Assembly: GCA_965198065.1 (NCBI GenBank)
Contig: CBDAON010000004.1
Coordinates: 1,312,001 to 1,376,000 of the forward strand
DNA: 64,000 bases
From: Longimicrobiales bacterium
GTDB lineage: Bacteria > Gemmatimonadota > Gemmatimonadetes > Longimicrobiales > Gaopeijiaceae
Direction: 5' to 3'
Positions 13,031-52,610 of this stretch are shown one piece after another. How positions within the stretch are numbered: the first letter of the stretch is position 1; each line of letters begins with the position of its first letter. The notes beneath the pieces are model-generated. The model saw only the letters and a program-made list of their open reading frames with translations. It was not told where the DNA came from and did no database searches. The translations under genes and the position numbers were made by a program.

Positions 13031-14194
13031 TCAGGAGCGAACCCTCCGGCGCTGCTCAAGGGCGTTCCTGAGTTGCTCCTCGTCAGCCCGCTGGTAGCAC
13101 TGGAGGACCGTCTGCGTGGTCTTCCAGCCGCCGAGTTCGCAGAGCACCTTGAGCGGCTGGTCCATGAGGTCGGAGGCGAACTTCCGCCTCAGGGAGTGCC
13201 AGCCTCTGCCACGCACGGGCTCCAGTCCCGCGAGTTTCTGGGCCTTCTTCCACCAGTCACGCGCCAGTGAACGGCTAACGCTCTTTGAGGGGTCCTTCGG
13301 AGCGGGTAGTACGGGAGTGTCCCCGATCCCGGGGTTCGTCTTTCGCGCCTCTTCCAAGACGGCGATCGCCTCGGCGGTTGCCGGCGTCCGGTGTTCGTAG
13401 CCTGTCTTCTCGTGTTCCCCACGCCATCGGATCACTCCGCCTTCCAAGTCGATGTCCGACCATCGAAGCTGTCGGATCGCACCGATGCGGTGTCCCGTAT
13501 CGTGGGCGAGGACCAGAGCGACGTGAAAGCGCCAGTCCAGCTCCAGATATACTTGGAGCAGGGCTTGGTATTCCGCCTCGGTAAGCACCACCCGCGTCGG
13601 GTTTTTTTCCGTGGGTGTCTTCAGGCCCCTCAGCGGGTTTGCGTCGAGGAGCAGCTCACCCTGCTCGTCCCTCGATTGCGCGGCCCAGTTGAGGACCGCG
13701 AGCAGGAACTTCAAGTCGCATTCGATCATTCGATCGGACACGGGTTTGCCGCTCGGGCCGACCTTGCCCGACCGCCGTTCCCGGATGAACCGATCCCAGT
13801 CTCTCTTGGACAGTGTTGCGGGGTCGCGATCCGGGCCGAAGACCCCGAGGAACATCTCCATTGTGGCCCCATCATACCTCTGGGACTGTCGAGCCTTGGT
13901 GGGCGTCACCTCATTACCGTAGATGTCAAAAAGCGTATCCAGTGTGAGTGGCTCGGGCGCGGCGTCCGCTCCGTCTTCGATCTCCGGCCCGACGTAGCCT
14001 GCGGCGACTTCGTCCGCCTGCTTCTTCGCCCGCGCCCAGTCGCGATGCTTGAGCGACCTGCTCAGCTTACGTCCGCCCTCGCGCCACTGGATCTGGAACA
14101 GACCGGTCTTGGGATCGGGGAATACCCGTACCCGGTTCCGGCCCCATTCGCCGGCGCTGTAGCTGCGCCGACTTCGTTTCGTGCGTGCCATCAT
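13031..14194 (-). CDS. Tyrosine recombinase/integrase of the ICE
   Basis: TGHRIGAI (R), HSLRR (HxxR), GGW, QCY (Y); adjacent to the tRNA. Confidence 0.93.
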   Translation of the reverse strand: MMARTKRSRRSYSAGEWGRNRVRVFPDPKTGLFQIQWREGGRKLSRSLKHRDWARAKKQADEVAAGYVGPEIEDGADAAPEPLTLDTLFDIYGNEVTPTKARQSQRYDGATMEMFLGVFGPDRDPATLSKRDWDRFIRERRSGKVGPSGKPVSDRMIECDLKFLLAVLNWAAQSRDEQGELLLDANPLRGLKTPTEKNPTRVVLTEAEYQALLQVYLELDWRFHVALVLAHDTGHRIGAIRQLRWSDIDLEGGVIRWRGEHEKTGYEHRTPATAEAIAVLEEARKTNPGIGDTPVLPAPKDPSKSVSRSLARDWWKKAQKLAGLEPVRGRGWHSLRRKFASDLMDQPLKVLCELGGWKTTQTVLQCYQRADEEQLRNALEQRRRVRS

Positions 14195-21948: not shown

Positions 21949-23181
21949 ATGAATGCCGTAGAGAACACCGCCGATCCGCCCCGGAAGACCAAGCCCAAGG
22001 GCCGTCACCCCGACAAAGCCCTGTCCGCCGCCTTCGTGCGCACGGCCCCGCCGGGCAGATATTGCGACGGCAATGGGCTCTACCTCTTCGTTCAGCCGAG
22101 CGGAGCCCGGAGCTGGATTCAACGGCTGGTCATCCGCGGCCGTCGCCGTGACTGCGGACTCGGCAGCGTCGCGCTGGTCTCGCTCGCCGAGGCTCGAGAG
22201 AAGGCGCGGGCCAACCGCAAGCTGGCCCGCGAGGGCGGCGACCCGCTGGCGGAGAAGCGCCGCGCCCAAGGCGTGCCCAGCTTCGCCGAAGCCGCTGCGC
22301 GCGTGGTGCAGCAGAAGCAGGCCGGTTGGCGCAATCCGAAGCATTGCCGCGACTGGATGTCGAGCCTGAGGCGATTCGCCTTCGCGCGCATCGGCGAGAT
22401 ACCGGTGTCGCAGGTGACGAGCGCCGACGTGCTGGAGATCCTTGCTCCGATCTGGCACACGAAGGCGACCACCGCCCGGAAGTTGCGCCAGCGCATCCGC
22501 ACGGTGTTGGAGTGGGCCGTGGCGATGGAGTTCAGGACCGACAACCCGTGCGACCGCCTCGGGCCGGTGCTCGGAGCGCAAGACGCCGTGGTGCAACACA
22601 TGCGGGCCTTGCCGCATCGCGAGGTGGCATCGGCCCTCGAGACGGTGCGGGCATCGGAGAGGATGCCCGTCGTCAAGCTGGTGTTCGAGTTCCTGGTGCT
22701 GACGGCGGCGAGGTGGGGCGAGGTACGGGGGGCCGAATGGGCCGAGATCGATCGGAGGGAGGGTGTGTGGACGGTTCCAGCCACACGGATGAAGGCGAAG
22801 CGCGAGCACCGGGTGCCGCTGTGCCGCCGCGCCATGGAGATCCTCGAGGAGGCGCGGACGCTCGACGACGGCAGTCCGCTGGTGTTCACCGACGGGGCAG
22901 GCAGGCAGCTCAACGGCAAGCGGCTGCGGCGGCTGCTCCGAAAGCACGGGATCTCGGCCGTGCCGCACGGCTTCCGGTCCAGCTTCAGGGACTGGGCGGC
23001 CGAGGAAACGGACCATCCGCGCGAGGTGATCGAGGCGGCGCTGGCGCACGTGGTCCAGAACAAGGTCGAGGCCGCGTATCGGCGCACGGACCTGTTCGAG
23101 CGCCGCCGCCTGCTGATGAACGATTGGGCCGGGTATCTGGCCCGCGAGCGTCGAGACCCGGAGGCCGGTCCCAGCCGCTGA
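21949..23181 (+). CDS. P4-like tyrosine integrase (Arm DNA-binding domain)
   Basis: DGNGLYL, GLGS..VSLAEAR, LTAARWGE, HRVPL, PHGFRSSFRDW, ALAH, AAYRR. Confidence 0.95.
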   Translation: MNAVENTADPPRKTKPKGRHPDKALSAAFVRTAPPGRYCDGNGLYLFVQPSGARSWIQRLVIRGRRRDCGLGSVALVSLAEAREKARANRKLAREGGDPLAEKRRAQGVPSFAEAAARVVQQKQAGWRNPKHCRDWMSSLRRFAFARIGEIPVSQVTSADVLEILAPIWHTKATTARKLRQRIRTVLEWAVAMEFRTDNPCDRLGPVLGAQDAVVQHMRALPHREVASALETVRASERMPVVKLVFEFLVLTAARWGEVRGAEWAEIDRREGVWTVPATRMKAKREHRVPLCRRAMEILEEARTLDDGSPLVFTDGAGRQLNGKRLRRLLRKHGISAVPHGFRSSFRDWAAEETDHPREVIEAALAHVVQNKVEAAYRRTDLFERRRLLMNDWAGYLARERRDPEAGPSR

Positions 23182-25720: not shown

Positions 25721-26311
25721 TCAGCCGCAGGCTTCCTCATTCACGCGGAGGTAGTCGAGGATGAACCCGTCCAGGTACTCGGACACCGTTTGCATGATGA
25801 AGCTCGCGCTCCCGCCGTGTGTGCCGATGGTGTCCCTTTCCCATGTGGTGGCCACCCCCGATTCTCCGCTTCTGGGGTCTTGGACGGACTTAAAGAGCTC
25901 TAGGCTGATATCGAACGCCGGGCTGAACGTCCTGATATTCAGCTCCAGCATCTGGCCGCCGCCCGAATCGTACAGCCTAGCGGCCCGCAACCGGCTCTCC
26001 ACCATCGTCCAAACGCGCTCCTTGGTGAGCCCCATTTCCTCCGCCTCGTCGCCTGAGACTAGACCGACGGCATACACCGGCGCGCACTCGGTGAATAGCC
26101 CGAAGCGGTCAACGTACGTCCCGTCCAAAATCTCCGCGAACACGTTGCACGGCGGCAGTGCCTGGTCCGGGTCGGCGGACACCGGCGGAGCGCCTGACGG
26201 GTCCTGCTCCGGGGCGGGCTCCGCCCTGTCGAAGTCGTCAACCTGGCACGCGAGCGGCACGGCGAGCGCGAGGCCCGCCAGAGCGAGCTGGCAGACACGG
26301 TGGGCGCTCAC
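25721..26311 (-). CDS. Lipoprotein cargo (paralogue of 41118-41960)
   Basis: PLAC lipobox; FTECAPV, ESRLRAA, FILDYLRVNE motifs shared with the paralogue. Confidence 0.75.
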   Translation of the reverse strand: MSAHRVCQLALAGLALAVPLACQVDDFDRAEPAPEQDPSGAPPVSADPDQALPPCNVFAEILDGTYVDRFGLFTECAPVYAVGLVSGDEAEEMGLTKERVWTMVESRLRAARLYDSGGGQMLELNIRTFSPAFDISLELFKSVQDPRSGESGVATTWERDTIGTHGGSASFIMQTVSEYLDGFILDYLRVNEEACG

Positions 26312-35911: not shown

Positions 35912-37147
35912 CTATCTCTCGCCCGCGAGATAGGCCGCCCAATCGTCCATCAGCCGGCGCCTGCGCTCGAAGAGGTCCGAACGCGCATAGGCCGCTTCCA
36001 CCTTGTTGCGAACCGCATGGGCCAACGCGGCCTCGGCGACCTCACGCGGTGCGTTGGAACACTCGCCGCACCAGTCCCTGAAGCTCGAACGAAAGCCGTG
36101 CGGCACAGCCGCGATACCCAGGTCTCGAAGTAGCGTGGAGAGTCTGCTGCCGGGAAATGCGCGGCCCTCCGACGACGGGAAAACCAGACCGCTGCTGCCG
36201 CCGAGCGTCCGCGCCTCCTCGAGGATCTCCATGGCGCGCCCGGACAGCGGCACCCTGTGCGGGCGATGGGCTTTCGTGCGTTCGGCGGGAACCGTCCACT
36301 CCCGAGCCTCCAGGTCGATTTCATCCCACTGTGCCAAGCGAACCTCTCCCGAGCGGGCCGCCGTCAACACCAGGAACTCGAAGGCGAGTTTCGTGGCCGG
36401 GTAAGCGTGCGACTTCCGCACCATCTCCATCGCGCCCGCGACCTTCGAGTGAGGCAACGCGCGCATGTGCCGGATTACGGCTTGCTGTCGGCCAAGCGCT
36501 TGACCGAGCACATCGCTGGCGGGGTTGTCCGGCCGAAGCCCCATCGCCACCGCCCACTTCATCACCGCCCCGATGCGCTGGCGCACCCGCCGGGCCGTCA
36601 CCTGCTTGTCGTGCCAGATCGGTGTCAGAACCGCCAGAACGTCGGCTGTCGTTATCTCGCCGACCGGTCGATTGCCCAGCTGTGGGAATGCATAGACGCG
36701 CAGGCTCGAGACCCAGTCCTGCGCATGCCTGGGGCTGCGCCAGCCCGGCCGAAGCTGTTCCAGAACACGGGCGGCCGCCTCGGCGAACGTGGGCATGTCC
36801 CGGACCTTGTATCGCTCGGTACGCGGATCGCCGCCCGAGCGCGCGATCTTGCGGTTCATGAATGCCTTCTCGCGCGCCTCGGCCAGCGATACCAGCTGGT
36901 AGCCCCCGAGCCCCAGCGTGCGGTTTCGACCCTGGATCCGCAGACGCTGCTCCCATCGGCGCGCGCCGGATCGGTCCACGCGCAGATAGAGGCCGTTCCC
37001 ATCGCAGTAGTATCCGGGCTTGGCGCTGCGCACGAAGGCCGCGCTGAGTGCGTTGTGCGGCCGCCTGCCTCGGTGTTTGGGCAAATCCAATTCGGGAGTC
37101 CCCGTATAAAGTATCGTATGTTGTATACGGGAACATAGTGGACACAC
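35912..37147 (-). CDS. P4-like tyrosine integrase of element 2 (true start may be TTG at 37090)
   Basis: DGNGLYL, LTAARSGE, HRVPL, PHGFRSSFRDW, ALAH, AAYAR. Confidence 0.95.
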   Translation of the reverse strand: MCPLCSRIQHTILYTGTPELDLPKHRGRRPHNALSAAFVRSAKPGYYCDGNGLYLRVDRSGARRWEQRLRIQGRNRTLGLGGYQLVSLAEAREKAFMNRKIARSGGDPRTERYKVRDMPTFAEAAARVLEQLRPGWRSPRHAQDWVSSLRVYAFPQLGNRPVGEITTADVLAVLTPIWHDKQVTARRVRQRIGAVMKWAVAMGLRPDNPASDVLGQALGRQQAVIRHMRALPHSKVAGAMEMVRKSHAYPATKLAFEFLVLTAARSGEVRLAQWDEIDLEAREWTVPAERTKAHRPHRVPLSGRAMEILEEARTLGGSSGLVFPSSEGRAFPGSRLSTLLRDLGIAAVPHGFRSSFRDWCGECSNAPREVAEAALAHAVRNKVEAAYARSDLFERRRRLMDDWAAYLAGER

Positions 37148-38496: not shown

Positions 38497-38988
38497 TCAC
38501 TCGGCTTTGCCGCGGCTCAACGCGATCTGCTTGCGGATCCACTCGTCCACCTCCTCCTCGATCCAGCCGACAGCGCGCGCGCCTAGCTGGACGGGTCTGG
38601 GGAAGGACCCCTCGGCCAGCCGCACGTAGATCGTGCTCCGCCCGAGCCCCGTGCGAGCTTGCACGGCCGGGAGCCGCACGATGCGGATCGGCACCTCCAT
38701 TTCCTGCACCATGGTTCTCGTCATCTCTCTGCCTCTCCGTTCTCTCTGGGATGAATCCCGGAGCCGGTCGCTCCGGGAGGAAACAGGGTCCACACCGGCC
38801 TCGTCGAAGCCTTCCATGAACGCCAGGAGCTGATCGACCGTCGCGAGCGTCGGGGAGCGGCCATGGCGTAGCTCACGCACCAGGTTCGGATCGCCAACCG
38901 CCTGGCGGCCAAGCGTCGCCGGCCCCACTCCCGTGCGCTCGAGGAACGCCTCCACTCGCGCCATGAAAAGCCCCTTCAGCGTCTCCAT
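38497..38988 (-). CDS. AlpA-family regulator with an extra N-terminal HTH
   Basis: IVRLPAVQARTGLGRSTIY..FPRPVQLGARAVGW; N-terminal GPATLGRQAVGDPNLV HTH. Confidence 0.88.
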   Translation of the reverse strand: METLKGLFMARVEAFLERTGVGPATLGRQAVGDPNLVRELRHGRSPTLATVDQLLAFMEGFDEAGVDPVSSRSDRLRDSSQRERRGREMTRTMVQEMEVPIRIVRLPAVQARTGLGRSTIYVRLAEGSFPRPVQLGARAVGWIEEEVDEWIRKQIALSRGKAE

Positions 38989-41117: not shown

Positions 41118-41960
41118 TCACTGGCAGTACCCCTCGTTGACACGCAGGTAGTCGAGGATGAAGGCGTCTAGGTATGCGCTCACCAGCTCACGGACGGCCA
41201 CCCGTTGGCCCGGTTCGTCTGCAACGATTACGGATGATCTCCCGTCGAGTTCCCATGACATACGCTCCCACGTCTCAACGACCTTGAACTCACCCGACAA
41301 GGGGTCCCAAACCTCCTTCGGGAACCATGCCCGGCTCCCGTCCCAGGCAATTCCCAGTGCGAGGGGATCGCCGTTCTCCCAATCATCACCATTCCAAATT
41401 CCTGCGGACCGCAGGCGATTCTCGGCCATTCTCCGGTTCTCCCTGAGCAACTCCCCACTCGGATCGGTCGGGCCGATGTAGACGGCATTCAACTTCACCG
41501 GCGCGCATTCGGTGAAGAGCGCGAACCGTTCATCCGCGAGGGTGGCAAGCGAGTCGAGTTCGGCCGATGCAGCTTCCAGAGCGTATATCCTCGCTAACAT
41601 TGAGTCGGCTCGCGCGAGCGCCCCGCGCATCTGCTCCGATCCTGTAGCGACACGACGGGCAACTTCGTCTCGGAAAGCCCGAAAGTTGTCTAGATCGTCG
41701 ATCACGACGTCGGTATCAGCCTCCCGGAAACCCTCCCAGAAAGCCTCCCGTATGGAATCGTTGAACACCCGGCGGGAGTACAGGGAATCGTGCCGGACGA
41801 CGGCCTCTGCGTAGCTGCGTTCAGCCTGATCGCCTCGGATCTCCTCCGCTAGGTCCGGATTGCCCACTTCCGGTTGCTCTGCCTCAGGAGTTGCCGGCGC
41901 ACAGCTTCCGAGCGCGACGGTAAGGAAGATAAGCGCGACGGCCCGGTACGTGTGTGTCAT
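41118..41960 (-). CDS. Lipoprotein (paralogue of 25721-26311)
   Basis: AGGAGG RBS, LGSC lipobox; FTECAPV, ENRLRSA, FILDYLRVNE. Confidence 0.78.
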   Translation of the reverse strand: MTHTYRAVALIFLTVALGSCAPATPEAEQPEVGNPDLAEEIRGDQAERSYAEAVVRHDSLYSRRVFNDSIREAFWEGFREADTDVVIDDLDNFRAFRDEVARRVATGSEQMRGALARADSMLARIYALEAASAELDSLATLADERFALFTECAPVKLNAVYIGPTDPSGELLRENRRMAENRLRSAGIWNGDDWENGDPLALGIAWDGSRAWFPKEVWDPLSGEFKVVETWERMSWELDGRSSVIVADEPGQRVAVRELVSAYLDAFILDYLRVNEGYCQ

Positions 41961-42058
41961 CCGGCCTCCTTGAGCCCCCCTAGGCGTGAATGTCTTGCTC
42001 CTGCTAGGCCCCATAAGGCTAGAAACCTAAGACCCGCCCGCCGTGGCCCGCGAGGAGG

Positions 42059-42137
42059 CTAGGGTAGGGAGGAGTCCGAAGTGTCGAGGGCCTCTTCTCC
42101 GGCCCTAAGTCGGTCCAGATAGTCCGCCCATTCTTGG
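42059..42137 (-). pseudogene. 3' tail of a P4-like integrase gene (target of element 3)
   Basis: QEWADYLDRLRAGEEALDTSDSSLP* resembles the C-terminus of P4-type integrases. Confidence 0.6.
42111..42137. repeat. att core, left end of element 3
   Basis: CGGTCCAGATAGTCCGCCCATTCTTGG, 25/27 identical to 52127-52153; perfect IHF consensus at 42160-42172. Confidence 0.85.
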
Positions 42138-42216
42138 ATCAGCTGCGCCAATATCATTATAAACGATTGATTAAAATATACTTATCGTAAGCAAAACCGG
42201 AGGCTCACACACGGAG

Positions 42217-42777
42217 ATGGAACCGATGAAGAAGGCTCGCCGCAGTAAGAAGCTCCAGGAGGAACGAGCGCAACGAGCGGCCGGTATGGTTCTCATTGTA
42301 CTGTTCGGCTTGCTCGTAGTCCATGGCTGTACTCGCGGTGACGACCGCGAGATACAGGCCGCACTGGACCTCGAAGAGCAAGGAGATTTCGCCGAAGCCG
42401 CGCGCCTGTTTCGCGAGCTGGCCGATCAAGAGAATGCAGAGGCGCAGTACGCTCTCGGGTACAGGTATGATGCCGGTATCGGCGTCCTGGAAGACGACGC
42501 CGAGGCATTGCGCCTAATATCCTTGTCAGCTGCACAAGGGTTCGCCCCTGCTCAACGCTCCATCGCGCTTAGATACGCCACCGGGACAGGTGGCGTGGGT
42601 GAGAGGGACTTTGTACTCGCGCACATGTGGTTTAACCTGGCCTCGGTCAACGGAAGCGATTTTGCATTCGACGACAGGACCGACATCGAGCTGTCCCTGA
42701 CAGCCGACGAACTCGAACGCGCTCTGGAGCTTGCCCGTCGATGTCTGGACTCGGGCTATCAGGAATGCGGGCTGTAG
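42217..42777 (+). CDS. Sel1-like repeat protein with N-terminal membrane anchor
   Basis: AEAQYALGYRY..G.GV, AAAQG..AQ, AHMWFNLA. Confidence 0.85.
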   Translation: MEPMKKARRSKKLQEERAQRAAGMVLIVLFGLLVVHGCTRGDDREIQAALDLEEQGDFAEAARLFRELADQENAEAQYALGYRYDAGIGVLEDDAEALRLISLSAAQGFAPAQRSIALRYATGTGGVGERDFVLAHMWFNLASVNGSDFAFDDRTDIELSLTADELERALELARRCLDSGYQECGL

Positions 42778-43790
42778 AAATAGCCGATGTCCGACCTCGG
42801 GTTGGCTGGCGCTCTCTCCGACCCTAGAAAAGAGCACAAACCCGAAGGGGACCGGTGTCCCCTCGGGGTCTGCGATCATCGAAGCCCTGGCATGGCCTGG
42901 CGTGGCTCGGCAGGGCAAGGCAGGGCAAGTAAGACGGGACGCGGCAGCGTTCGACACGCTTCCCCCGCCCTACGGGATCGCTAGTCGAACAGACTCGGTG
43001 GGGCCGCCGCTTGGAGCTCCCCTCGGGGCGTGTCCCGGAATCGGTGGGCTGCGCGAAGAGCTCTAGCTGACGTGGCCTAATAGCTCCTGCCTGACCGGCT
43101 AGCCGCGTCCCCGTGGCGGATCACAAGATCGGCGCACGACTCGCACACGAGTCACTCGGCCCAAGCCGCGCCGCTCGGCCGAGGCTGCGGGGACGTGGTG
43201 AGTGGCCTCCGGTCGCGTCGCGGTCCCCGGGCCAATCTTCCCGTCGTCACGTTATCTCGGCATCCGTTCATCCGTTCGCGGCTAGGGAGAGCCCAGGGAA
43301 TCCGTTTCGCTCCGGTGGAAATAATGGTGGGAACAGCGCCACTCCTAAATCCGTAAAGCCTTTATAGTAAATGGATTAGTAGTGCGCGGAGAAACAGACA
43401 AAACGGCCTACGGCAGATCACTGATCGTTCCGATCCGACAACGCAGCCGAAGCGTCTCTCTGAACCGACCCGCATCGTCCAACCCGAATCAGGTTGGAAG
43501 AGAGTCCATGTCAGCGGCAGGCGTGAGTCAGGCCATGGCTTTGCGTTCATGCTCGGCCAGGATTCGGGGAGTGCCTCGGTTACCGAACTGTCCCGGATCG
43601 AACGCACTTCGATCGACCGTGATCGAGGCTTTCCTCAGGCCCTCCGGGAGAAGCTCGATCGGGCGCTGGCGGAGCCCGATCCGGCTGTGGGACGTGGTTG
43701 ACCTCCTGGAATCTCCCCTCTCTTGCCGTGCTTGACACTGCACGGAACCGGCTCCTCAATGTAGCTGGTATGGACACCCTGACGGCCCTG

Positions 43791-43945
43791 CACCGGCTGC
43801 CTCGAATCACGATCCGCGCAGGCCGCCGCCTTCGCACCGGGCATACCTCCGATGTTCTGATCCCTGGGCCCGGGACAGGCCATGGGACGACAAGAGACCG
43901 GCATGCGTTACCGAGCCCTCACTGCCGCCCTGCCGCAGGGCCAGA
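43791..43945 (+). pseudogene. Diverged copy of the virB10 3' end / trbJ 5' junction
   Basis: HRLPRITIRAGRRLRTGHTSDVLIPGPGT versus NRLPTITIRAGHRLRIWFTSDVLVPRPGT; nucleotide similarity continues into the trbJ start. Confidence 0.75.
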
Positions 43946-44100
43946 TGAACGCCTCCGTGGGCCGAGTACTCGCCTGTCAGGCCGTCGAGCAGGCGAACCG
44001 GATTTGCCGTGGTGGTCAACAATCCTGTGTGCCCAATCACATTTCGAACCGGCTTATATGAAACCGCATCTTTCCAGAGAGATTTATTCTTGCTCTTCGC

Positions 44101-44552
44101 ATCCTGGCCAAGGTCCCGCATCGCCTGCGCAAGCGTGTGGCGCGCGAGGTTGCCGCCGTCTTCCGGGCCCCCGGGCTCGCTAAGGCGAAGAAGCGCCTGG
44201 CCGAGATCACGGCGCGCTGGCACAACGAACTCCCCGAGGCAATGAGGGTGCTCGAGCGGGGCTTCACGGCCGCCATCCAGTTCTACGCGTTTCCCGAGCC
44301 CCACTGGGCCAGGCTACGCACCACGAACAGCCTCGAGCGCCTGCACACCGAGATCAAGCGTCGAATCCGGAGCGCCGGCGCCTTCCCTGACTGAGCCAGT
44401 GCACTCCGCCTCATCACCGCGGTTGCTCTGAGGACTACTGCGGTCTGGAGCGAGCGCCGTTACCTGGACCTCTCACTCCTCGAGCCCAAGGAGGTCGCCA
44501 AGGCAGCCTAACCGAAGCATCGAGGAGCTTCCTCTCACTTTTGGACTTGACC
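44101..44552 (+). mobile_element. IS256-family 3' remnant (nonsense codon at 44392)
   Basis: RTTNSLERLHTEIKRR; near-identical to 54471-54930 on the opposite strand; terminal GGACTTGACC. Confidence 0.88.
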
Positions 44553-44600
44553 CTCGAGGCTCGGTCCTTCGGCGGTTCTGCGACTCGACATCATGGTCCA

Positions 44601-45467
44601 TCAGACCGGTTGCAGGTTGACGAACTCCGTAAAGTCGTCCGTACCATCGGACTGGATCGCATACCGGAATCGGAGTTCATCTCTGTCGTCGCGACGCCTG
44701 GCATTCTTGATTGCGAGCACTTGAATGGCTGCGTAGAAGCCCCCCGTGTTGCGCAGTACGACGATTTGGCCGAGGGATGGTTTCCGAGAGCGAGACGTGT
44801 AGTCCAGCGACGCGGCACACTCCACCTGCGAGATCGACCTGCATCCGCAGGCCAGCCCGACGCCGTTGATGGACGGGGGATCGTTGTAAACATGAATCCT
44901 AGTGTCACTCGCACTAGACCACTTAGTTTCGAATTCCAGCACTCCAAAGCCGATGACGTAGCGCCCGTTGTAGCTGCTGTAGTCGAATACGACTTCGCCG
45001 GTCGGCGATGTCATTCTTGGCGGCGGTACCTGGGACGCTTTGCCGGCGAAGGGCTGGACGCCCAGTTTGTTGGCGATCATTGTCGCGAGTTGCGCGGGCG
45101 TGTGCTTCCGGGCGCATTCGTAGATGACGTCCGTCGGCAGACCGGGCACCCGCGTGTCATCGAAGCGAACGGGAAGGATGTACTCGTCCTTCTCCTCGAT
45201 CATGCGGCTAAGGGCCGACCGCCTTTCATGATTGGGCCAAGCCTTTGACACATAGGCTTCGGAAATGAACATTACGACGTAGGCGCTCTTTTCGGCGAAT
45301 GCTTCATGGAATGCTTCCGCGCCGCGCCGGCCCCAAAGACCGACCTTTTCGAAGCCGTCGTAGAAGACGTCGATGGATCGGCTCTGGAGATGCCGTGCGA
45401 CCTCTTCCACATAATCCCGCTGTTCCCCGGCAAAAGACAGCGCTACTTGATACTTCGGGCCGGTCAT
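44601..45467 (-). CDS. TIR-domain protein with a beta-rich C-terminal domain
   Basis: VALSFAGEQR, VFYD, FISEAY, WPNHE (putative catalytic E), ILPVRFD. Confidence 0.88.
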   Translation of the reverse strand: MTGPKYQVALSFAGEQRDYVEEVARHLQSRSIDVFYDGFEKVGLWGRRGAEAFHEAFAEKSAYVVMFISEAYVSKAWPNHERRSALSRMIEEKDEYILPVRFDDTRVPGLPTDVIYECARKHTPAQLATMIANKLGVQPFAGKASQVPPPRMTSPTGEVVFDYSSYNGRYVIGFGVLEFETKWSSASDTRIHVYNDPPSINGVGLACGCRSISQVECAASLDYTSRSRKPSLGQIVVLRNTGGFYAAIQVLAIKNARRRDDRDELRFRYAIQSDGTDDFTEFVNLQPV

Positions 45468-45656
45468 CGGACTCCCTCTCTACCGACCATTCGTCTGCGG
45501 CCGGGTCTGTCGAAGGGCTTCGCCGCCATTGCCCCTGGTTGGAAGGTAGCACGGCGCGTAGCGCGGAGCGCCATATCGTGCCACTCCCGATCAGCCGGTG
45601 AGGATAGGTGATCACCCGACCTTGCAGCTCCGGAGACATCCAGGTTACGCACCTGG

Positions 45657-45810
45657 TGAGTTGACGGGGCCGATTTGAGTTGAGCGGCCTCCGCTCCGGA
45701 TCGACTCGCGATCCGGAGGCCAGGTGAGATGAAGCTGAGCAAGGAGCAGGTGAGGGTGGCGAAGGGGCTGGCAGAGCGGGGCAGATCGGTGCGGAGGCTT
45801 GCTGGGAGAT
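45657..45810 (+). mobile_element. Short IS remnant (IS21-like left end)
   Basis: TGAGTTGA repeated; GGTGAG RBS, then MKLSKEQVRVAKGLAERGRSVRRLA HTH start that breaks off. Confidence 0.4.
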
Positions 45811-45998
45811 CTTCTCCTGGAATATGGACGGGTTGATGATCCCTAGGAGAACAGTTGGAGAAGAGCGGGGGCCAAGCTACGCGTAACGAAAGGCTGGGTG
45901 AGCGGTCCGTCGAACGGGGTGCCGGTCTGGGAACTGTACGTGTCCCACGCTGTAGAGCTAGCGATGCAGTTCAGACATCCACCAGGGATGCTCAGCAA

Positions 45999-47375
45999 AT
46001 GTCGAACGATGTGAATTCCCGCCTCTCCGATCTACTGGCCAACCTCCGTGAGTCCCCTGAAGTAGAAGTCAAGGGCTGGCTCGACCTGGAGAACAACAAC
46101 CAGCACAAGGCACGTCTCGCGAAGGCAACTCTTGCGTTGGCGAATCATGGTGGTGGCTGGGTTGTGTTGGGATTCAAGGAGGTTGATGGGACCATGGTGG
46201 AGGCTGAAGACTATCCAGCCACGCTCAACCCATATAACCAGGATCTGATCAACGGAATCGTTCGACGGTATTGCGAGCCAGAGTTTCATTGCACGGTGCA
46301 CCTGGTTCCGCATGGAGGCAAGATTTTTCCGGTGGTGGAGGTACCGGGTGGGCATGACGTTCCTGTGCGTGCCCGACGGGCAGGGGCCGATGAGAAGATT
46401 CTTCAGATGAATGCCATCTATATTCGCAAGCCGGGCCCTCGTAGCGAGCCACCGCAAAGCGGACAGGAATGGGACCGTCTCCTAGCTCGGTGCCTGAGCA
46501 ACCGAAGTGATGAACTGCTTGGCCATATTCAACGCATAGTGAGCGGGGCCGCGTCGCAAGAACGGCTTGCATCCGACAACGAGCGCCTTGATGAGTGGAT
46601 TACCACATGCTTCGATCGTTGGTCTTCACTGATCGATCAGTTACCGCCAGAAGCCATAGGGCCTAGGTTTTCATACGGCTGTTACAACTTCGCGTATGAG
46701 ATCGTGGGCGATGCGCGGGAGACTACGCTTGCCCAGCTACCGCATGTCTTGCAACGAAGCGTTGTCCACCTTACAGGATGGCCACCGTTTTGGTTTCCAA
46801 CACGAAAGGGAATCGCACCATACCCTGCGGATGGTGCCGTGGAATGCTGGATAGGCGGAGACACCGATGCAGAGCCGGGGGCACATGCTCCGGATGATTC
46901 GGATTTTTGGAGGATCAGTCTGGATGGATATGCCTTTTTGTTAAGAGGCTATCGCGAGGATCAAGGTGATCTGCAGTTCGCAGGGCAAGGAACCGCGGAG
47001 CCCGGAACGGTTTTCAGTGTCACAAAGCCGGTATGGCGCGTTGGCGAGACACTCCTGCAGGCCCAACGCCTAGCAGAGAATCTGTTCGAAGGCCCTACAA
47101 CAATTCGATTCTCTGCTAAGTACACTGGGCTCAAGGGACGATCATTGGTGAGAATAAATGGAGGAAGGCATATAATGAGAGGATTGATCTCCCGTCAAGA
47201 AGCAATCACCCCAAAAACTGTGACTATAGACTCAACGACTATCAGTACCAGTCTGCCTCAAATAGTTCATAGAATTTTGTCGCCACTATACGAGTTATTC
47301 AGTTTCTTTCAGCTCCCAATGGACCTAGTCGTGGAAGAGCTAGACTGTATGCGTAAGAGAGGCATTACTAGCTGA
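45999..47375 (+). CDS. Schlafen/AlbA_2-domain protein
   Basis: RESPEVEVK, ALANHGGGWVVLGFKE, IYIRKPGPRS. Confidence 0.85.
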   Translation: MSNDVNSRLSDLLANLRESPEVEVKGWLDLENNNQHKARLAKATLALANHGGGWVVLGFKEVDGTMVEAEDYPATLNPYNQDLINGIVRRYCEPEFHCTVHLVPHGGKIFPVVEVPGGHDVPVRARRAGADEKILQMNAIYIRKPGPRSEPPQSGQEWDRLLARCLSNRSDELLGHIQRIVSGAASQERLASDNERLDEWITTCFDRWSSLIDQLPPEAIGPRFSYGCYNFAYEIVGDARETTLAQLPHVLQRSVVHLTGWPPFWFPTRKGIAPYPADGAVECWIGGDTDAEPGAHAPDDSDFWRISLDGYAFLLRGYREDQGDLQFAGQGTAEPGTVFSVTKPVWRVGETLLQAQRLAENLFEGPTTIRFSAKYTGLKGRSLVRINGGRHIMRGLISRQEAITPKTVTIDSTTISTSLPQIVHRILSPLYELFSFFQLPMDLVVEELDCMRKRGITS

Positions 47376-47424
47376 TGAGAATACAAAAGAGGTTGCAATC
47401 CAAAGCTGATCCTGAGCGGTGGCC

Positions 47425-48456
47425 CTAGAGCGAGCGGTTCTCCTGGTCGAAGAACGTATCGCCATCGTACGAGGAGAGCTTGAACACTTCGAATCCGGAC
47501 TGGAGTAGCCCAAGTAACTTGGTCTTGGCTTCGCCTTCGCTCATAGAGTAGTTGACTACATGCTCGAGCTTCTCCCGCTCGACAGGCAAGTGCTCGACAG
47601 AAAGGTCTCGGAAAGTGTGCCAAAGGACGGAGAGAGCCTTGAGCACTTCAGAGGTGTGCCAGTCGAAGAGGATCGCGGCCTGCTCCTTAAGGTAGTCTCG
47701 CTCGAAGTACTGCTTGAACTGGGGCAAGGCCAGGTTGAAGTCGAGTTGAAAGTAGCCGTCGAACGAGTAATTCTCTTCGTTGCGATCCCGAGTTAGATGG
47801 TCGCGAGGGATGCCCCACGGGCTGTCGTCGTCGAGAAGGGGCTCTGGGAATACGAAAAAGGTGAGTTCAAGGGACTTGGGTAGACTCCGGTAGTCCTCCC
47901 ACACGTCTCGGTGGGCCCTGACCGGCTTTCGATCGAATTGAAGCGTCGCGCATGCCCCCGGAAGGTCAAGATCGAGGCGCATTCGATACGACTGCGCATT
48001 TTCGTGGAGACGTCGAGCTAGCTCTTCATTGAAATGGGGACTTCGTTCATGGAGTTGGTATGACTGCTTTCCCAGTAGCGTCGTGACTGACCGAGCCAGG
48101 TAGAACTTCGCGTAATACGTCGTGATGTTGAGCCAATGAAGCAGGCCGCCTTCCATCAAGTTGCGGGCTGCTATGTAGTTGTAGAACCCCTTGTAGAAGT
48201 GGAACAGCGCCTCATGGAGGATGATCGGACGAACCGCGACGAGCTCATCCCCTTCGAGCGAAAGCTCGATCCGCCCGTTGCTCGATGGCGTGTCATCGAG
48301 GCGTAACGCATCTCGTGTCGCCCTCGCCAGGTTCAGTTCACTTGGGCGTCTCGGCAGCTTTTTTGCAGGCCAGTAGTCGGTGTTGGCGTAGAAGCTTTGG
48401 AGATCATCTTTACTTGTCATGCGAGCCCTTAATTCAGACCACAGGTAACGCGCCAC
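47425..48456 (-). CDS. Hypothetical protein, HEPN-like
   Basis: YYAKFYLARS and RNEENY resemble HEPN-type motifs; start at 48456 or 48420. Confidence 0.6.
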   Translation of the reverse strand: MARYLWSELRARMTSKDDLQSFYANTDYWPAKKLPRRPSELNLARATRDALRLDDTPSSNGRIELSLEGDELVAVRPIILHEALFHFYKGFYNYIAARNLMEGGLLHWLNITTYYAKFYLARSVTTLLGKQSYQLHERSPHFNEELARRLHENAQSYRMRLDLDLPGACATLQFDRKPVRAHRDVWEDYRSLPKSLELTFFVFPEPLLDDDSPWGIPRDHLTRDRNEENYSFDGYFQLDFNLALPQFKQYFERDYLKEQAAILFDWHTSEVLKALSVLWHTFRDLSVEHLPVEREKLEHVVNYSMSEGEAKTKLLGLLQSGFEVFKLSSYDGDTFFDQENRSL

Positions 48457-48545
48457 TGTGCCGGCCAGGCATGTCCGCTAACGGATCTTGGCAGACGTGT
48501 CCGATTGTTGCACTTCAAACTTGATCTCAAGAGTCCTGCCGGCGA

Positions 48546-49370
48546 CTACAGGATGCTATCCATGATCCCGCGAGCAATGTCGAGAGACGCCTGGTCCCTG
48601 TCAGGCCACTGTGTGATCGGGATACCATCCTCTGGTAGCCCTTGCAGCTCGCCGAAAGGCGTGACGTTCCAATCACAAGCGCGCAGGACCACAGGAATAA
48701 CTCGAGCCGTGCCATCCCTGTGTCGGCGAAGAGCGATCTCACCTTCGACTTCGTAGCAATATCGAGATGCCAGAAAGTCAGGACTCATGAAAAGTAGGAT
48801 AACGTGAGCCTGCTCGATCCTCTCGTCGACCTCGGTTCGCCATTCGTCGCCCGCAGGAATCATCCGGTCGTGCCATTTCACGATCTCACCAAGGCGTTCG
48901 CGCACTACGAGTTGCAGCCGGACCACGTCCATTAGCGCTTCATCTTCATGCGTGTAGGAGAAGAAGATCTCGATGGGGCGTGCCGCAATGGGCGGCTGAG
49001 GGGCACCGCGCTGAGGAGGAGACGCCGCCAGTTGGCGCTCCGACGGCGGCGGATCGAGCGCTAGCAATCGGGTCGCGATAGCCCTGCAGCGCTCGGCCCC
49101 AGTGTGCCCCGGCCTGTAGGACTCAGCGTACTCGACCAGTTCACGGAGGATCTCCCCCACTAGCTGATCTGGCGCACGATCCCAGAAGCTTCGCATCCGG
49201 TTGGCCTTCGAGCCGCTATGCCCCTCAAGATACGGAGCACCGTCGATGTCGACGTCGAAGTCCCGGAAAAAGTCAGCAAACGTCCGGTCACTGAAGTTCA
49301 AGACGTAGCCGCCACCCATCTCGAGAAACTCTTCGAGGACATTCTTTTCCCGAAACCTCAGCGATGCCAT
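48546..49370 (-). CDS. TIR-domain protein with AbiJ-like N-terminal domain
   Basis: GGYVLNFSDRTF..GSKANRMR N-terminus; IFFSYTHED, WHDRMI, SPDFLASRYCYEVE, IPVVLR. Confidence 0.88.
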   Translation of the reverse strand: MASLRFREKNVLEEFLEMGGGYVLNFSDRTFADFFRDFDVDIDGAPYLEGHSGSKANRMRSFWDRAPDQLVGEILRELVEYAESYRPGHTGAERCRAIATRLLALDPPPSERQLAASPPQRGAPQPPIAARPIEIFFSYTHEDEALMDVVRLQLVVRERLGEIVKWHDRMIPAGDEWRTEVDERIEQAHVILLFMSPDFLASRYCYEVEGEIALRRHRDGTARVIPVVLRACDWNVTPFGELQGLPEDGIPITQWPDRDQASLDIARGIMDSIL

Positions 49371-49582
49371 GCGGCTCCAACCGTCTTCATGGGACTCCTA
49401 ACTTAAGATTGTGCCGTTCAAGGCATGTCTTCTAACGTTCAGAGGTTGCCAGCGCGGCTCCGTCCGCGCTTCACCGGAGCGAACGTAGTGAGCGAAGGCG
49501 GCAACCGCATTGTTATCGGACGGCGCCACCTGATAGCCAACCGCACCGAAAAAGTGCGCGCTGATCCCACAGGGATTCTCGC

Positions 49583-50022
49583 TCACCTGCGGCTGGGCCA
49601 GAAACGTCTATCTGGGAACACGCTCTCCAGACGCTCGATCAGCGCGTCGGCGGCTCTGCTGGGACTGGGATACGATTCTCCGCCCATGGTGAAGCCAGCG
49701 TTTAGCCGCAGGTCCAATTGCTCGGTACCGACCAGTTCGGGGTCGGCACCAAGCGAGAAGACATCAACAACGGAGTCTCCGATCACCGATAAGCGGACTT
49801 CGGCGAGGCTAGGCGGGTTGCCATTCACCACGGGTCTTCGCGCCGCCTCGCGCGGGAGCAGAACTGCGATAGCCGTCACTGTCGGGTCCCGATCTGGCAC
49901 TATCACGGTTCGCCGAATCGGACTTACTTCGAAGCGAGAGGAACGCCCTCTCGCGAAGAGCTCCGATCTAAGTTCCTCAAGCGCTGCCGCATTTATCACC
50001 AAGTCGGATGGGTCTCGAGCTA
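49583..50022 (-). pseudogene. 3' part of a hypothetical gene truncated by IS256
   Basis: Open frame begins at the IS end at 50023 with no convincing start. Confidence 0.4.
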
Positions 50023-50357
50023 GGATCAAAGGGTGTGTAAAAAGAGAGGCGACGTACCTTTGCGCTGAGATTTAAAGCAGCGAGCCCGGGTGACAGCCCG
50101 GGGAAAGGAACGTCGCCTCATGAGAGAGGATATCGCGGGAGCCCAGGGTGCGTCCAGCAGGCCGATGTGGGAGACGCTCGAGGGGATGGTTCGGGAGAAG
50201 GCGCAGGAGTTCATCCAACAGATCATGGAGGAGGAAGTGACGGAGTTGTTAGGCCGGGAGAAGTCAGAGCGCAGGAGTACGGTGGACTCGGCCGAGGGCT
50301 ACCGCAACGGATATGGCAAGCCGAGGCGGTTGGCGATGAGCTCGGGCACGATCACGC
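50023..50357 (+). mobile_element. IS256-family 5' remnant
   Basis: End GGATCAAAGGGTGTGTAAAAAG; EEEVTELLGREKSER..YRNGY..R. Confidence 0.85.
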
Positions 50358-50764
50358 CATGGACCGACAACGAATCCGAACACGAGACGAGAAAATCGCG
50401 GATCGATCCACGCACGAATCGACCTACTTTCGCCAGAGAGCATCCGGCGATGGGGAACCATGGCTGCGAGAGAGATGGTCTGCCATGCCGCCGATCAGCT
50501 AAGGGTCGCACTCGGCGATCTCAAGTTACATGCAGGACCGCTCCGGCTCAGATTCAGCGGTCGGGAAGTAAAGGTGACACCGGGGCTCCTCAGGTTCAGA
50601 TCCTTTCGACGGGGCCTGGGTCGGAAGGCTTCCCCGTCAAGCGGACCACGCATAGTTGGACTCCGGCGCTAGTGTTCGCGCGCGCTTTCTTCGCTCCACG
50701 GGGACGCTCGGGCGATTGATCTCTGCGGATATTAGTCGCGCCGTGTTGAGACAAAGACGGCAGA

Positions 50765-52000
50765 TCAACGGACCGGTTCGGCCTCCGGGTCGCGACTCTT
50801 GTCGGCCAGGTACGCAGCCCAATCGTCCATGAGCCGACGTCGGCGCTCGAACAGGTCAGTGCGCCGATAGGCCGCCTCGACCCTGTTCTGGACGACATGC
50901 GCCAAGGCTGCCTCGATGACCTCGCGCGGGTGGTCCGTCTCCTCGGCTGCCCAATCGCGGAAGCTGGAGCGAAACCCGTGCGGCACGGCCGCGATCCCGT
51001 GCTTCCCGAGCATCCGGCGCAGTTGCTTCTCCTCGAGCTGCTTGCCGAGCCGATTGGGAAACAGATACGGACTGGTTCCCTTCACCAGCGTCCGTGCCCC
51101 GTCCAGAATCTCCAGTGCACGACCACACAGCGGTACCCGGTGCTCGCGGTTCGCCTTCGTCCGCCTGGCCGGGACAGTCCACACACCCTCGTCCCGATCA
51201 ATCTCGGTCCATTCGGCCCACCGCACCTCACCCCATCGTGCCGCCGTCAGCACCAGGAACTCGAACGCCAGCCGGACGGCCAGCGGCACCGTTGATGCCC
51301 GCGCAGTCTGGATGGCCGCGGCCACCTCGCGATGCGGCAGCGCCCGCATGTGCTGCACGACGTCACGCTGTGGACCCAGGACCGGGTCGATCCGGTCACA
51401 GGGGTTGTCGATCCGGAACTCCATCGCCACCGCCCACTCCAACACCGCGCGGATGCGCTGCCGCAACCGCCGGGCGGTGTCCGCCTTCGTGTGCCAGATG
51501 GGAGCGAGGATCTCCAGCACGTCGGCGCTAGTGACCTCCGAGACCGGCATCTTCCCGATGCGCGGGAAGGCGTACCGCTCGAAGGTCAAGATCCACTCGC
51601 GGCCGTGCGCCCGATTTCGCCAGCCGGCTTGCTTCTGTTCTACCACACGCGCGGTGGCTTCGGCGAAGCTCGGCACACCCTCCGCACGACGCTTCTCGGC
51701 AAGCGGGTCGCCACCCTCGCGGGCCAGCTTACGGTTGGCCAGCGCCTTTTCCCGGGCCTCGGCGAGGGAGACCAGCGCGACGCTGCCGAGCCCGAGCTCG
51801 CGGCGCCGACCCCGGATGAGCAGGCGCTGAATCCAGCTTCGGGTTCCGCTCGGCTGGACGAAGAGGTACAACCCGTTGCCGTCCGCGTGTCTTCCAGGCG
51901 GGGCCGTGCGCACGAAGGCGGCCGACAGGGCCTTGTCTGGATGGCGGCCCTTGGGCTTGGTTTTCCGCGGCGGAGTGGCCTTGTTCGTTACAGTAACCAT
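50765..52000 (-). CDS. P4-like tyrosine integrase of element 3
   Basis: Same motifs as integrase 1, with long identical stretches; ATG at 52000 chosen from the conserved promoter. Confidence 0.95.
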   Translation of the reverse strand: MVTVTNKATPPRKTKPKGRHPDKALSAAFVRTAPPGRHADGNGLYLFVQPSGTRSWIQRLLIRGRRRELGLGSVALVSLAEAREKALANRKLAREGGDPLAEKRRAEGVPSFAEATARVVEQKQAGWRNRAHGREWILTFERYAFPRIGKMPVSEVTSADVLEILAPIWHTKADTARRLRQRIRAVLEWAVAMEFRIDNPCDRIDPVLGPQRDVVQHMRALPHREVAAAIQTARASTVPLAVRLAFEFLVLTAARWGEVRWAEWTEIDRDEGVWTVPARRTKANREHRVPLCGRALEILDGARTLVKGTSPYLFPNRLGKQLEEKQLRRMLGKHGIAAVPHGFRSSFRDWAAEETDHPREVIEAALAHVVQNRVEAAYRRTDLFERRRRLMDDWAAYLADKSRDPEAEPVR

Positions 52001-52006
52001 CCCCGC

Positions 52007-52035
52007 ATAATATAGGGGATGCAAGCGGATATCAA
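52007..52035 (-). promoter_or_regulatory. Sigma70-type promoter of integrase 3 (probably leaderless)
   Basis: TTGATA-17 bp-TATTAT, ATG 6 nt downstream. Confidence 0.7.
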
Positions 52036-52126
52036 TGGATGCTAAGTCGGAAGAATCCGCTAGGCTAGGTCAGTAACTCGTTGTTATAGAAGCTAGTTAT
52101 GGACTTAACTGGACGATACTGCACAC

Positions 52127-52153
52127 CGGTCCAGATAGTCTGCCCATTCCTGG
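52127..52153. repeat. att core, right end of element 3
   Basis: CGGTCCAGATAGTCTGCCCATTCCTGG. Confidence 0.85.
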
Positions 52154-52610
52154 GTCGTGCGTGGCTGCCCGAGCACCCGGCACGCTCTCCTCTCCGACGC
52201 CCCGAGCTGCTGACGTACACGCACCACACAACGTCGTCGGCCCTCGGGGCTCAGAAGTTTCCCTTGGCCGCTTCCTCCACGATCAGCTTGTCCAGTGTCA
52301 AGTCCGCCACTGCTCGCTTCAGGCGCCCGTTCTCGCGCTCGAGCTCCTTCAGGCGCCGTGCCTGGCTCACCTTCATCCCGCCGTACTCCCGCCTCCACCG
52401 GTAGTACGTCTGCTCGGTGATGCCGAGCTCCCCCCTGATCAGCTTCACGGATTTGCCGCCGGCCAGACCGACCTCTGCCTCCCGCACTGCAGTGATGATC
52501 TGCTCCGGAGTGTGTCGCTTCCTTCCCATCCTGACCTCCTCGCTGAAAAGCTTCGGACCAGCTCGATCCTAACATTGCACCTGGTCTCGTTTCAGGGGCT
52601 CAGGTCAATC
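52154..52610 (-). mobile_element. Truncated IS3-family element (orfA 52251-52529 intact, orfB cut off)
   Basis: MGRKRHTPEQII..TYYRWRREYGG..LKELERENGRLK; GGGAAAC at the orfA/B junction; end TGACCTGAGCCCC. Confidence 0.88.

Follow-up and report, generated by a model that had tools for sequence, protein, structure and literature searches.

An integrase clade of Longimicrobiales that probably uses the 3' ends of P4-type integrase genes and a fixed position in an IS3-family element as targets, with a likely hybrid copy

The window considered here is a stretch of 64,000 nucleotides from a Longimicrobiales genome (G000:C4:1312001-1376000, G000 being the source genome), and the subject is the third of three elements within it, element 3, together with its integrase gene int3. 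From the junctions compared across related genomes, it is probable that the clade of int3 uses both the 3' ends of P4-type integrase genes and a fixed position in orfB of an IS3-family insertion sequence (IS), and that the copy in the window is a stranded hybrid. The frame of int3 is open and the motifs TAARWGE, RTKANREH, HGFRS, LAHVV and AAYRRTD are all located in it, the residues of which we take to be the catalytic R, K, HxxR, H and Y of a tyrosine recombinase; with all three domains found by Pfam it is an integrase of the P4/CP4-57 type. Its nearest relatives, at 86-97% identity, are in metagenome-assembled genomes of Longimicrobiales (Gemmatimonadota).

Element 3 was originally predicted from two 27-bp repeats, at 42111-42137 and 52127-52153, and these are real, with 25 of 27 bases matching, whereas 300 shuffled 27-mers compared with the whole window reached 21/27 at best. 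Both encode QEWADYLDR on the minus strand and differ by CAA/CAG and GCG/GCA, both of which are synonymous. The left repeat reads on into LRAGEEALDTSDSSLP and a stop codon, and the proposal that this is the C-terminus of a P4-type integrase is upheld by intact classic P4-type integrases (L067 and L141-L143) that have WADYLDRLRAGEE in common with it, L067 (Arm-DNA-bind_3, Phage_int_M, Phage_integrase) ending in AFLPERRVMMQAWADYLDRLRAGEE. At the right end an IS3 fragment is present as predicted, but it is not fused at 52154; IS3 sequence reaches 52150 and thus the right repeat begins with four bases (CCAG) that belong to IS3.

The repeats are not a matched pair of attachment sites, as the right end is IS3-type (CGACCCA/IS3) and the left is integrase-type (TGATCCA/integrase), without the distal arm and AlpA; matched ends are found in the relatives G175 and G346. 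With cores that differ and flanks that come from different genes, the view that both repeats are the ends of one insertion is not supported. The P arm in the window is only ~43 bp long and lacks the distal conserved block GATTCCCG...TAATGAGGGGAT, which is present at the other 6 of 7 integrase-tail attR sites. No AlpA was found between the ends of element 3, the only AlpA match in the window (38500-38988) being outside it. The Sel1 module that meets this arm has different neighbours in G139 and G347. The motif shared by the P and P' arms, TAATATAGGGGAT, may be an arm-type binding site.

The clearest case of an integrase gene as target is a filled and empty pair in G000 (C4:381733 and C4:15173), which agree at 98.85% over 1391 bp, up to the point where they part, immediately behind TCATGGA. 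The filled allele ends in RRRLMEEWACYLDRCAVSSSTVHK and a stop codon, followed by a sister of int3 (88% to int3), the empty allele ends in RRRLMDDWAAYLAGGSRKRYTN and a stop codon, and the displaced tail of the filled allele was not found in G000, which is 87.6% complete. A search with the left arm of the element across 314 genomes of the family gave 27 attL matches in 13 genomes, with 21 in IS3 (10 genomes), 4 in integrase genes (4 genomes) and 2 with other flanks, both kinds being held by G000 and G235. All four integrase-type attL (G000, G235, G356, G380) read through in frame, the products being two full-length three-domain integrases (L081, L090), one classic-type fragment at a contig edge and one decayed fragment. 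The junction lies in a stretch coding for MxxWAxYL, some 12 codons beyond the catalytic tyrosine; from there the arm of the element continues the frame of the target as EWA(D/C)YLDRCAVSSS, so that the tail EWADYLDRCAVSSS keeps the target open as a replacement sequence does.

The opposite end is represented by nine integrase-type attR junctions, seven found by a loose pattern together with L109 and L168. Across the 314 genomes the loose pattern matched ten times (seven an AT-rich arm with an integrase tail, one the arm with an unrelated flank and two probably by chance); two narrow patterns gave nothing in five genomes, and looser ones later did. Both ends are found 29.8 kb apart on G459:C5 (the same coordinates as G380), with TGATGGA at each, and this is likely a whole element within an integrase gene; it has VirB4/6/9/10/11 and VirD4 matches and no relaxase among 23 open reading frames (ORFs) scanned. 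In run X10, too, one contig (loose end at 52152) runs from the arm into a classic P4 gene. At the level of sequence junctions the targeting of integrase genes is thus confirmed in relatives of int3, and the predicted use of P4-type integrase 3' ends is borne out within the clade by the filled and empty pair, 4 attL and 9 attR.

The 3' end of int3 itself contains an unoccupied target site of this type (TCATGGA-CGATTGGGC), and genes of the int1, int2 and int3 type in G000 bear the same target in their own 3' ends, at 11 other sites besides int3. The C-terminal tails of such genes look to have been swapped, for instance with RRDPEA-type tails on different backbones.

All 21 of the IS3-type attL junctions, in 10 genomes, have IS3 base 458 joined to the same arm. 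Reciprocal junctions, in which the arm is followed by CGACCCAG and the 3' half of IS3, were found 11 times in 8 of 16 genomes examined, and AlpA adjoins the IS3-type attR in 7/7 checked. Whole elements lie between IS3 halves in G175:C3 (32.7 kb, with no type IV secretion system (T4SS) among 19 ORFs) and G346:C5 (13.1 kb), and in G372:C3 an attL and attR pair is 65 kb apart in the correct orientation. On this sequence evidence IS3 is a second true target and not a deletion scar. The idea that IS3 merely replaced the upstream part of the integrase gene therefore falls, IS3 being a recurrent attachment site with reciprocal junctions, and the proposed check of where homologues of int3 insert gave integrase ends as expected, but IS3 base 458 in 21/27 attL.

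Repeated insertion into IS3 is favoured, with gene conversion as the alternative, because the IS halves in G000 and G082 match local copies; the three junction halves in G000 differ from full-length copies in the same genome at 0, 0 and 2 bases, as against 8-10 for the nearest junction halves of other genomes, and those in G082 are 0-1 bases from a local full-length copy. Target duplication was seen in at most 2/8 intact IS3 copies checked, and the test is uninformative on split copies because their flanks are scrambled or their ends missing. Besides the integrases of the window G000 has many further integrase copies, and its intact IS3 target sites number 26. The 458-bp piece of IS3 was considered as a fixed mini-element and rejected, as other copies run to 1271 bp. 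In another IS3-family element orfB is occupied by a distinct sister clade, at 76-77% to int3 (L010, L011, L021:5817, G000 C4:2796319).

A quick, midpoint-rooted tree was made from 95 integrase rows, leaving out those of <66% identity or <270 aa and four duplicate rows. It contains an 18-row clade (SH-aLRT 100) of 13 integrases with an IS3-type attL, 4 with an integrase-type attL and 1 whose att region is lost, in which the target labels are interleaved (2 changes each) and L006, which is in a classic P4 gene, branches first with a support of 83. The enzymes of the clade are 86-98% identical with two unrelated targets, and all members of the 18-row clade carry the integrase replacement tail. 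The integrase site is taken as ancestral because this tail fits integrases and is useless in IS3. The left core of attR before integrase tails is GGCGCAGC, GGCACGGC and similar, and before IS3 it is AAGCCACAGC, AAGACACAGC or AAGCCACGCA, resembling the CAGCCACGCA of IS3 itself, with that of G248 intermediate. As the left core is IS3-like at IS3-type elements, the clade is likely to be part-way through a switch of target, and from the junctions it would seem that attP has been remodelled on one side toward a site present in dozens of copies. The core itself is probably 7 bp, judged from blocks of identity, and varies (TGATGCA, TCATGGA, CGACCCA); therefore either the demand for homology at the core is loose or the core of attP follows whichever target was used last.

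The sister clades, judged from flanking ORFs, sit in ArdC, IS21 istB, IS200-like transposases, relaxase, other integrases, pilin and immunoglobulin (Ig)-repeat genes, and thus a tropism for the genes of mobile elements is a trait of the family. Sister integrases L050, L055, L056, L051, L070 and L053 lie in Ig-like/cadherin repeat, leucine-rich repeat, pilin and relaxase genes, and insertion into genes for repeat proteins could shuffle surface proteins. The integrase-targeting clade is itself a target, there destructively, of relatives (~78%) of intICE, another integrase in the window; these insert in the interior of int3-type genes, at two sites resembling GYCGAGKNGRC (codons ~270 and ~375), and the reciprocal halves are present. 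The loci concerned are G000 C4:452342, 2685154, 136031, 511787 and 2074410, C3:55358, and L030, L031, L082, L086 and L089. Outside the genomes of the family, a metagenome pattern scan for the P' arm and a scan of viral contigs each gave 0 matches, and the best relative in a metagenome protein search (80 loci) is 75% identical, with none in the int3 clade.

The mechanism that fits these junctions would be one in which recombination uses the 7-bp core, the target integrase stays active once its end is replaced, and AlpA at the far end serves as a directionality factor, with the clade moving from an ancestral integrase site to IS3. The hybrid in the window could have come about if sister elements or copies of the IS recombined with each other, or if the integrase joined an attL to an IS3 site. 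As the distal arm and AlpA are lost, it is predicted to be unable to excise as a unit. An attL-attR joint or empty site was not among the contig joints listed, and contigs cannot show absence. A bolder reading, on which belief and doubt are about equal, is that evolution in this clade has turned the best-conserved DNA of its own family of enzymes into the attB, which is mended as an element enters. Every resident P4-type element, those of the same kind included, would then be a landing pad, and elements could line up integrase behind integrase without killing their host; the clade would have been caught mid-switch to a multicopy IS3 site, with the left core of attP rewritten to IS3 and the right side keeping the replacement.

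Could the two ends in the window still be explained more simply? A single integration into a classic P4-type gene may have made both repeats, with attL later recombining with IS3 by means of the integrase, so that the 5' part of the target was lost or moved elsewhere. The replacement segment and the displaced tail do agree at 22/23 bases, the junction is exactly at the crossover register, and L006 has this same arm fused to a classic P4 gene. This history is nevertheless unlikely; the nearest relatives of int3 (96-98%) are all IS3-type at attL, for which reason int3 most likely arrived through IS3, and against it also stand cores that differ at 2/7 bases and a mosaic cargo, in which remnants of IS256 and of the T4SS occur and attR adjoins a foreign module. 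That a chance deletion fused an IS3 fragment to an element already in an integrase gene is barely credible, for although such decay is common in G000, an identical junction 21 times in 10 genomes, with its reciprocal products, refutes it.

A single ancient fusion of IS3, attL and integrase that spread as a cassette, with gene conversion making the IS part local, would do away with IS3 as a repeated target. This could account for a derived base shared by the IS3-type attL sites (GACCGG vs GACCGA), for the excess of IS3-type attL over attR (21 vs 11), for the scrambled IS flanks and scarce target duplications and for the IS halves of G223 and L003, which group with the junctions of other genomes. 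It is quite unlikely given that reciprocal junctions with the 3' half of IS3 occur in 8 genomes and their P-arm cores are of two kinds or more, that two elements are whole between IS3 halves, and that the IS3 junction of L091 bears an EWACYLD variant of the arm. Decidedly improbable too is an assembly chimera across the repeats (IS3, IS256, integrase copies) as the source of the mixed ends. None of the contigs listed spans the whole stretch, and coverage breaks at the repeats at 43-44 kb and 50-52 kb, but a contig over 40500-42217 from run X2 (which may be the source sample) bridges the left junction without mismatch and contigs from X5 and X10 cross the right junction and reach 29-30 bases into the IS, a little short of the 31-base rule; the result for the family is unaffected even if the window is a chimera.

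A number of points weigh against two targets with a switch from one to the other. Integrase-type attL sites are a minority (4/27), the reversed control of the loose attR pattern gave 4 matches in the 314 genomes, and the G459 pair may be mismatched, its tail being 92.5% like the end of the int2 gene in the window and its 5' piece reading like the int1/int3 type, frameshifted. The IS halves of G223 and L003 are nearer to the junctions of other genomes (2-5) than to the single full copy in their own (12-14), one local full copy being compared in each case. The replacement sequence and the quick midpoint-rooted tree, where the support for L006 is 83, are what gives the switch its direction, the genomes surveyed are kin rather than independent samples, and the mechanism is drawn wholly from junctions, with no excision, circle or recombination observed.

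The features of the window are collected in Table 1; from left to right it contains tRNA-Ile, intICE, ArdC, a T4SS cluster and AlpA, plus int1, int2 and int3.

Table 1. Positions of element 3, its ends, its cargo and other integrase genes in the window
Feature	Position	Strand	Remarks
intICE, tyrosine integrase of the tRNA-Ile ICE	13031-14194		
int1, P4-type integrase	21949-23181		
int2, P4-type integrase	35912-37117		
AlpA	38497-38988		sole AlpA match in window; outside element 3
Displaced 3' tail of classic P4-type integrase gene (QEWADYLDRLRAGEEALDTSDSSLP, then stop); host side of integrase-type attR	42059..42136	-	WADYLDRLRAGEE shared with L067, L141-L143
Putative 7-bp crossover core TGATCCA, integrase-type attR	42135..42141	-	register matches TGATGCA/TCATGGA/TGATGGA at sister junctions
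Remnant of element-side P arm	42142..42184	-	83% to proximal part only of C4:881807 arm
Sel1-repeat gene	42217..42777	+	Pfam Sel1; module meets P-arm remnant at ~42180
T4SS-region DNA fragments	43787-44003	.	
IS256 (Mutator) remnant	44104-44542	.	
TIR-domain cargo gene	44601..45467	-	Pfam TIR_2 E 3.5e-15; PADLOC PDC-S66 E 1.6e-12
AlbA_2 (Schlafen-like) cargo gene	45855..47375	+	Pfam PF04326
343-aa cargo ORF, downstream of ThsB-like gene	47425..48456	-	no Pfam or PADLOC match
TIR protein resembling Thoeris ThsB	48546..49370	-	PADLOC ThsB E 2.8e-48; Pfam TIR_2
Second IS256-type remnant	50017..50356	.	
int3, intact 411-aa P4-type tyrosine integrase	50765..52000	-	Pfam Arm-DNA-bind_3, Phage_int_M, Phage_integrase
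Element-side P' arm of attL and integrase upstream region	52008..52104	-	TAATATAGGGGAT motif shared with P arm
Replacement tail borne by element (EWADYLDRCAVSSS, then stop)	52105..52150	-	in frame if target is an integrase gene
Putative crossover core CGACCCA, IS3-type attL	52151..52157	-	identical bases at reciprocal attR junctions
5' 458 bp of 1271-bp IS3-family element (left end, orfA, orfB start); attL host side	52150..52607	-	99% to full-length copies; Pfam HTH_Tnp_1

It had also been proposed that all three elements are satellites in mobility genes, nested within an integrative and conjugative element (ICE). This holds for the sites of elements 1 and 2, which sit in a virB8-like gene and in virB4, insertions that are confirmed because G459 has the same T4SS block without them, with an intact virB8-like gene and an 877-aa virB4. 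It is not supported for the nesting of element 3, which is ~3 kb outside the T4SS-AlpA block (edge ~39130), although the gene that owned the tail at 42059 may have belonged to the element that carries the T4SS. The far-end motif of intICE was not found in or near the window, and a T4SS, coupling protein and relaxase set, as in an ICE, was not found between the att sites of element 3. Nor is the word satellite supported for element 3, in which the ORFs scanned at 42-52 kb gave no Pfam match to phage-satellite genes (primase, capsid, packaging). Pfam gave no relaxase in element 3 either.

The GC content of the cargo is 58.8% compared with 68% for the backbone. The ThsB-like TIR gene and the 343-aa ORF (47425-49370) possibly form a Thoeris-like pair with an unrecognised effector. 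Elsewhere, two secreted or lipoprotein-like ORFs in different elements (25721-26311 and 41118-42014) have similar C-termini (…YLDxFILDYLRVNE…) and belong to no Pfam family. Near-identical copies of the AlpA-virB4 region, element 2 included, are at C4:4295-5022 and C4:2866017-2867837, that is at both ends of contig C4, and are either a repeat made by the assembly or a duplication that took place recently. Away from the window ICE, at G000 C3:45793-45928, there is a far end of intICE type that has a displaced 3' fragment of tRNA-Ile, and this may be the separated other end of that ICE.

Split integrases of the archaeal SSV1/pNOB8 type have an att site inside the integrase gene, and the element's own attP splits its own gene. 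The int3 clade is alike in having an att site within an integrase gene, but int3 is whole, its own att is ~150 bp upstream and another copy provides the attB that is used. Islands and prophages of the tRNA, icd or dusA type, whose attP holds a replacement sequence, are described in the available parts of PMC10111431 and PMC4383910, and share with the int3 clade a tyrosine integrase beside attL, a copy of the target 3' end that leaves the gene in frame and a displaced fragment that marks attR; they differ in that the int3 clade restores the integrase of another element and not a host gene, and that the same arm at IS3 restores nothing. The available part of PMC10111431 sets out the rule of replacement sequences, and reports an integrase clade that hits prophage late genes without replacement and a phage-inducible chromosomal island (PICI) in an IS110 transposase gene. 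Its helper-embedded (HE) PICIs are similar in that their integrase clade favours genes of other mobile elements, AlpA lies close by, and there are many groups of sites along with off-target insertions, but they disrupt prophage late genes without replacement and carry phage genes, whereas the int3 family targets integrase, transposase and conjugation genes with the replacement present and no phage genes by Pfam. Element 3, with neither the late-gene site nor phage genes among its Pfam matches, does not qualify as an HE-PICI or phage satellite.

Streptococcal integrative and mobilizable elements, which according to the available part of PMC5704250 sit in genes (Maff2, SNF2, traG/VirD4) or oriT of Tn5252-family ICEs, resemble elements 1 and 2 in that they insert site-specifically where a resident element has a conserved mobility gene; they differ in that no integrase gene is a target in that part of the paper, and element 3 is without a relaxase detected by Pfam. 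Protein-coding integration targets are common according to the parts available of PMC10484663 and PMC12884075, and those of PMC8138268 and PMC13626063 contain nothing on the targeting of integrase ends. No title or abstract in the literature searched deals with elements that target and restore the 3' end of another integrase, although supplements may list such targets.

Site-specific integrases are seldom caught in an intermediate state while changing target. If the bolder reading given above is true, the clade would be a natural and testable snapshot of att specificity moving. It has natural att variants for both targets, with which the roles of core sequence, overlap homology and protein changes can be assayed directly. 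The window also carries a caution, in that flanking repeats can join the ends of different events. That a rival integrase would be repaired rather than broken points to hitch-hiking on the host element, and would explain both the chains of adjacent integrases and the swapped integrase tails in these genomes.

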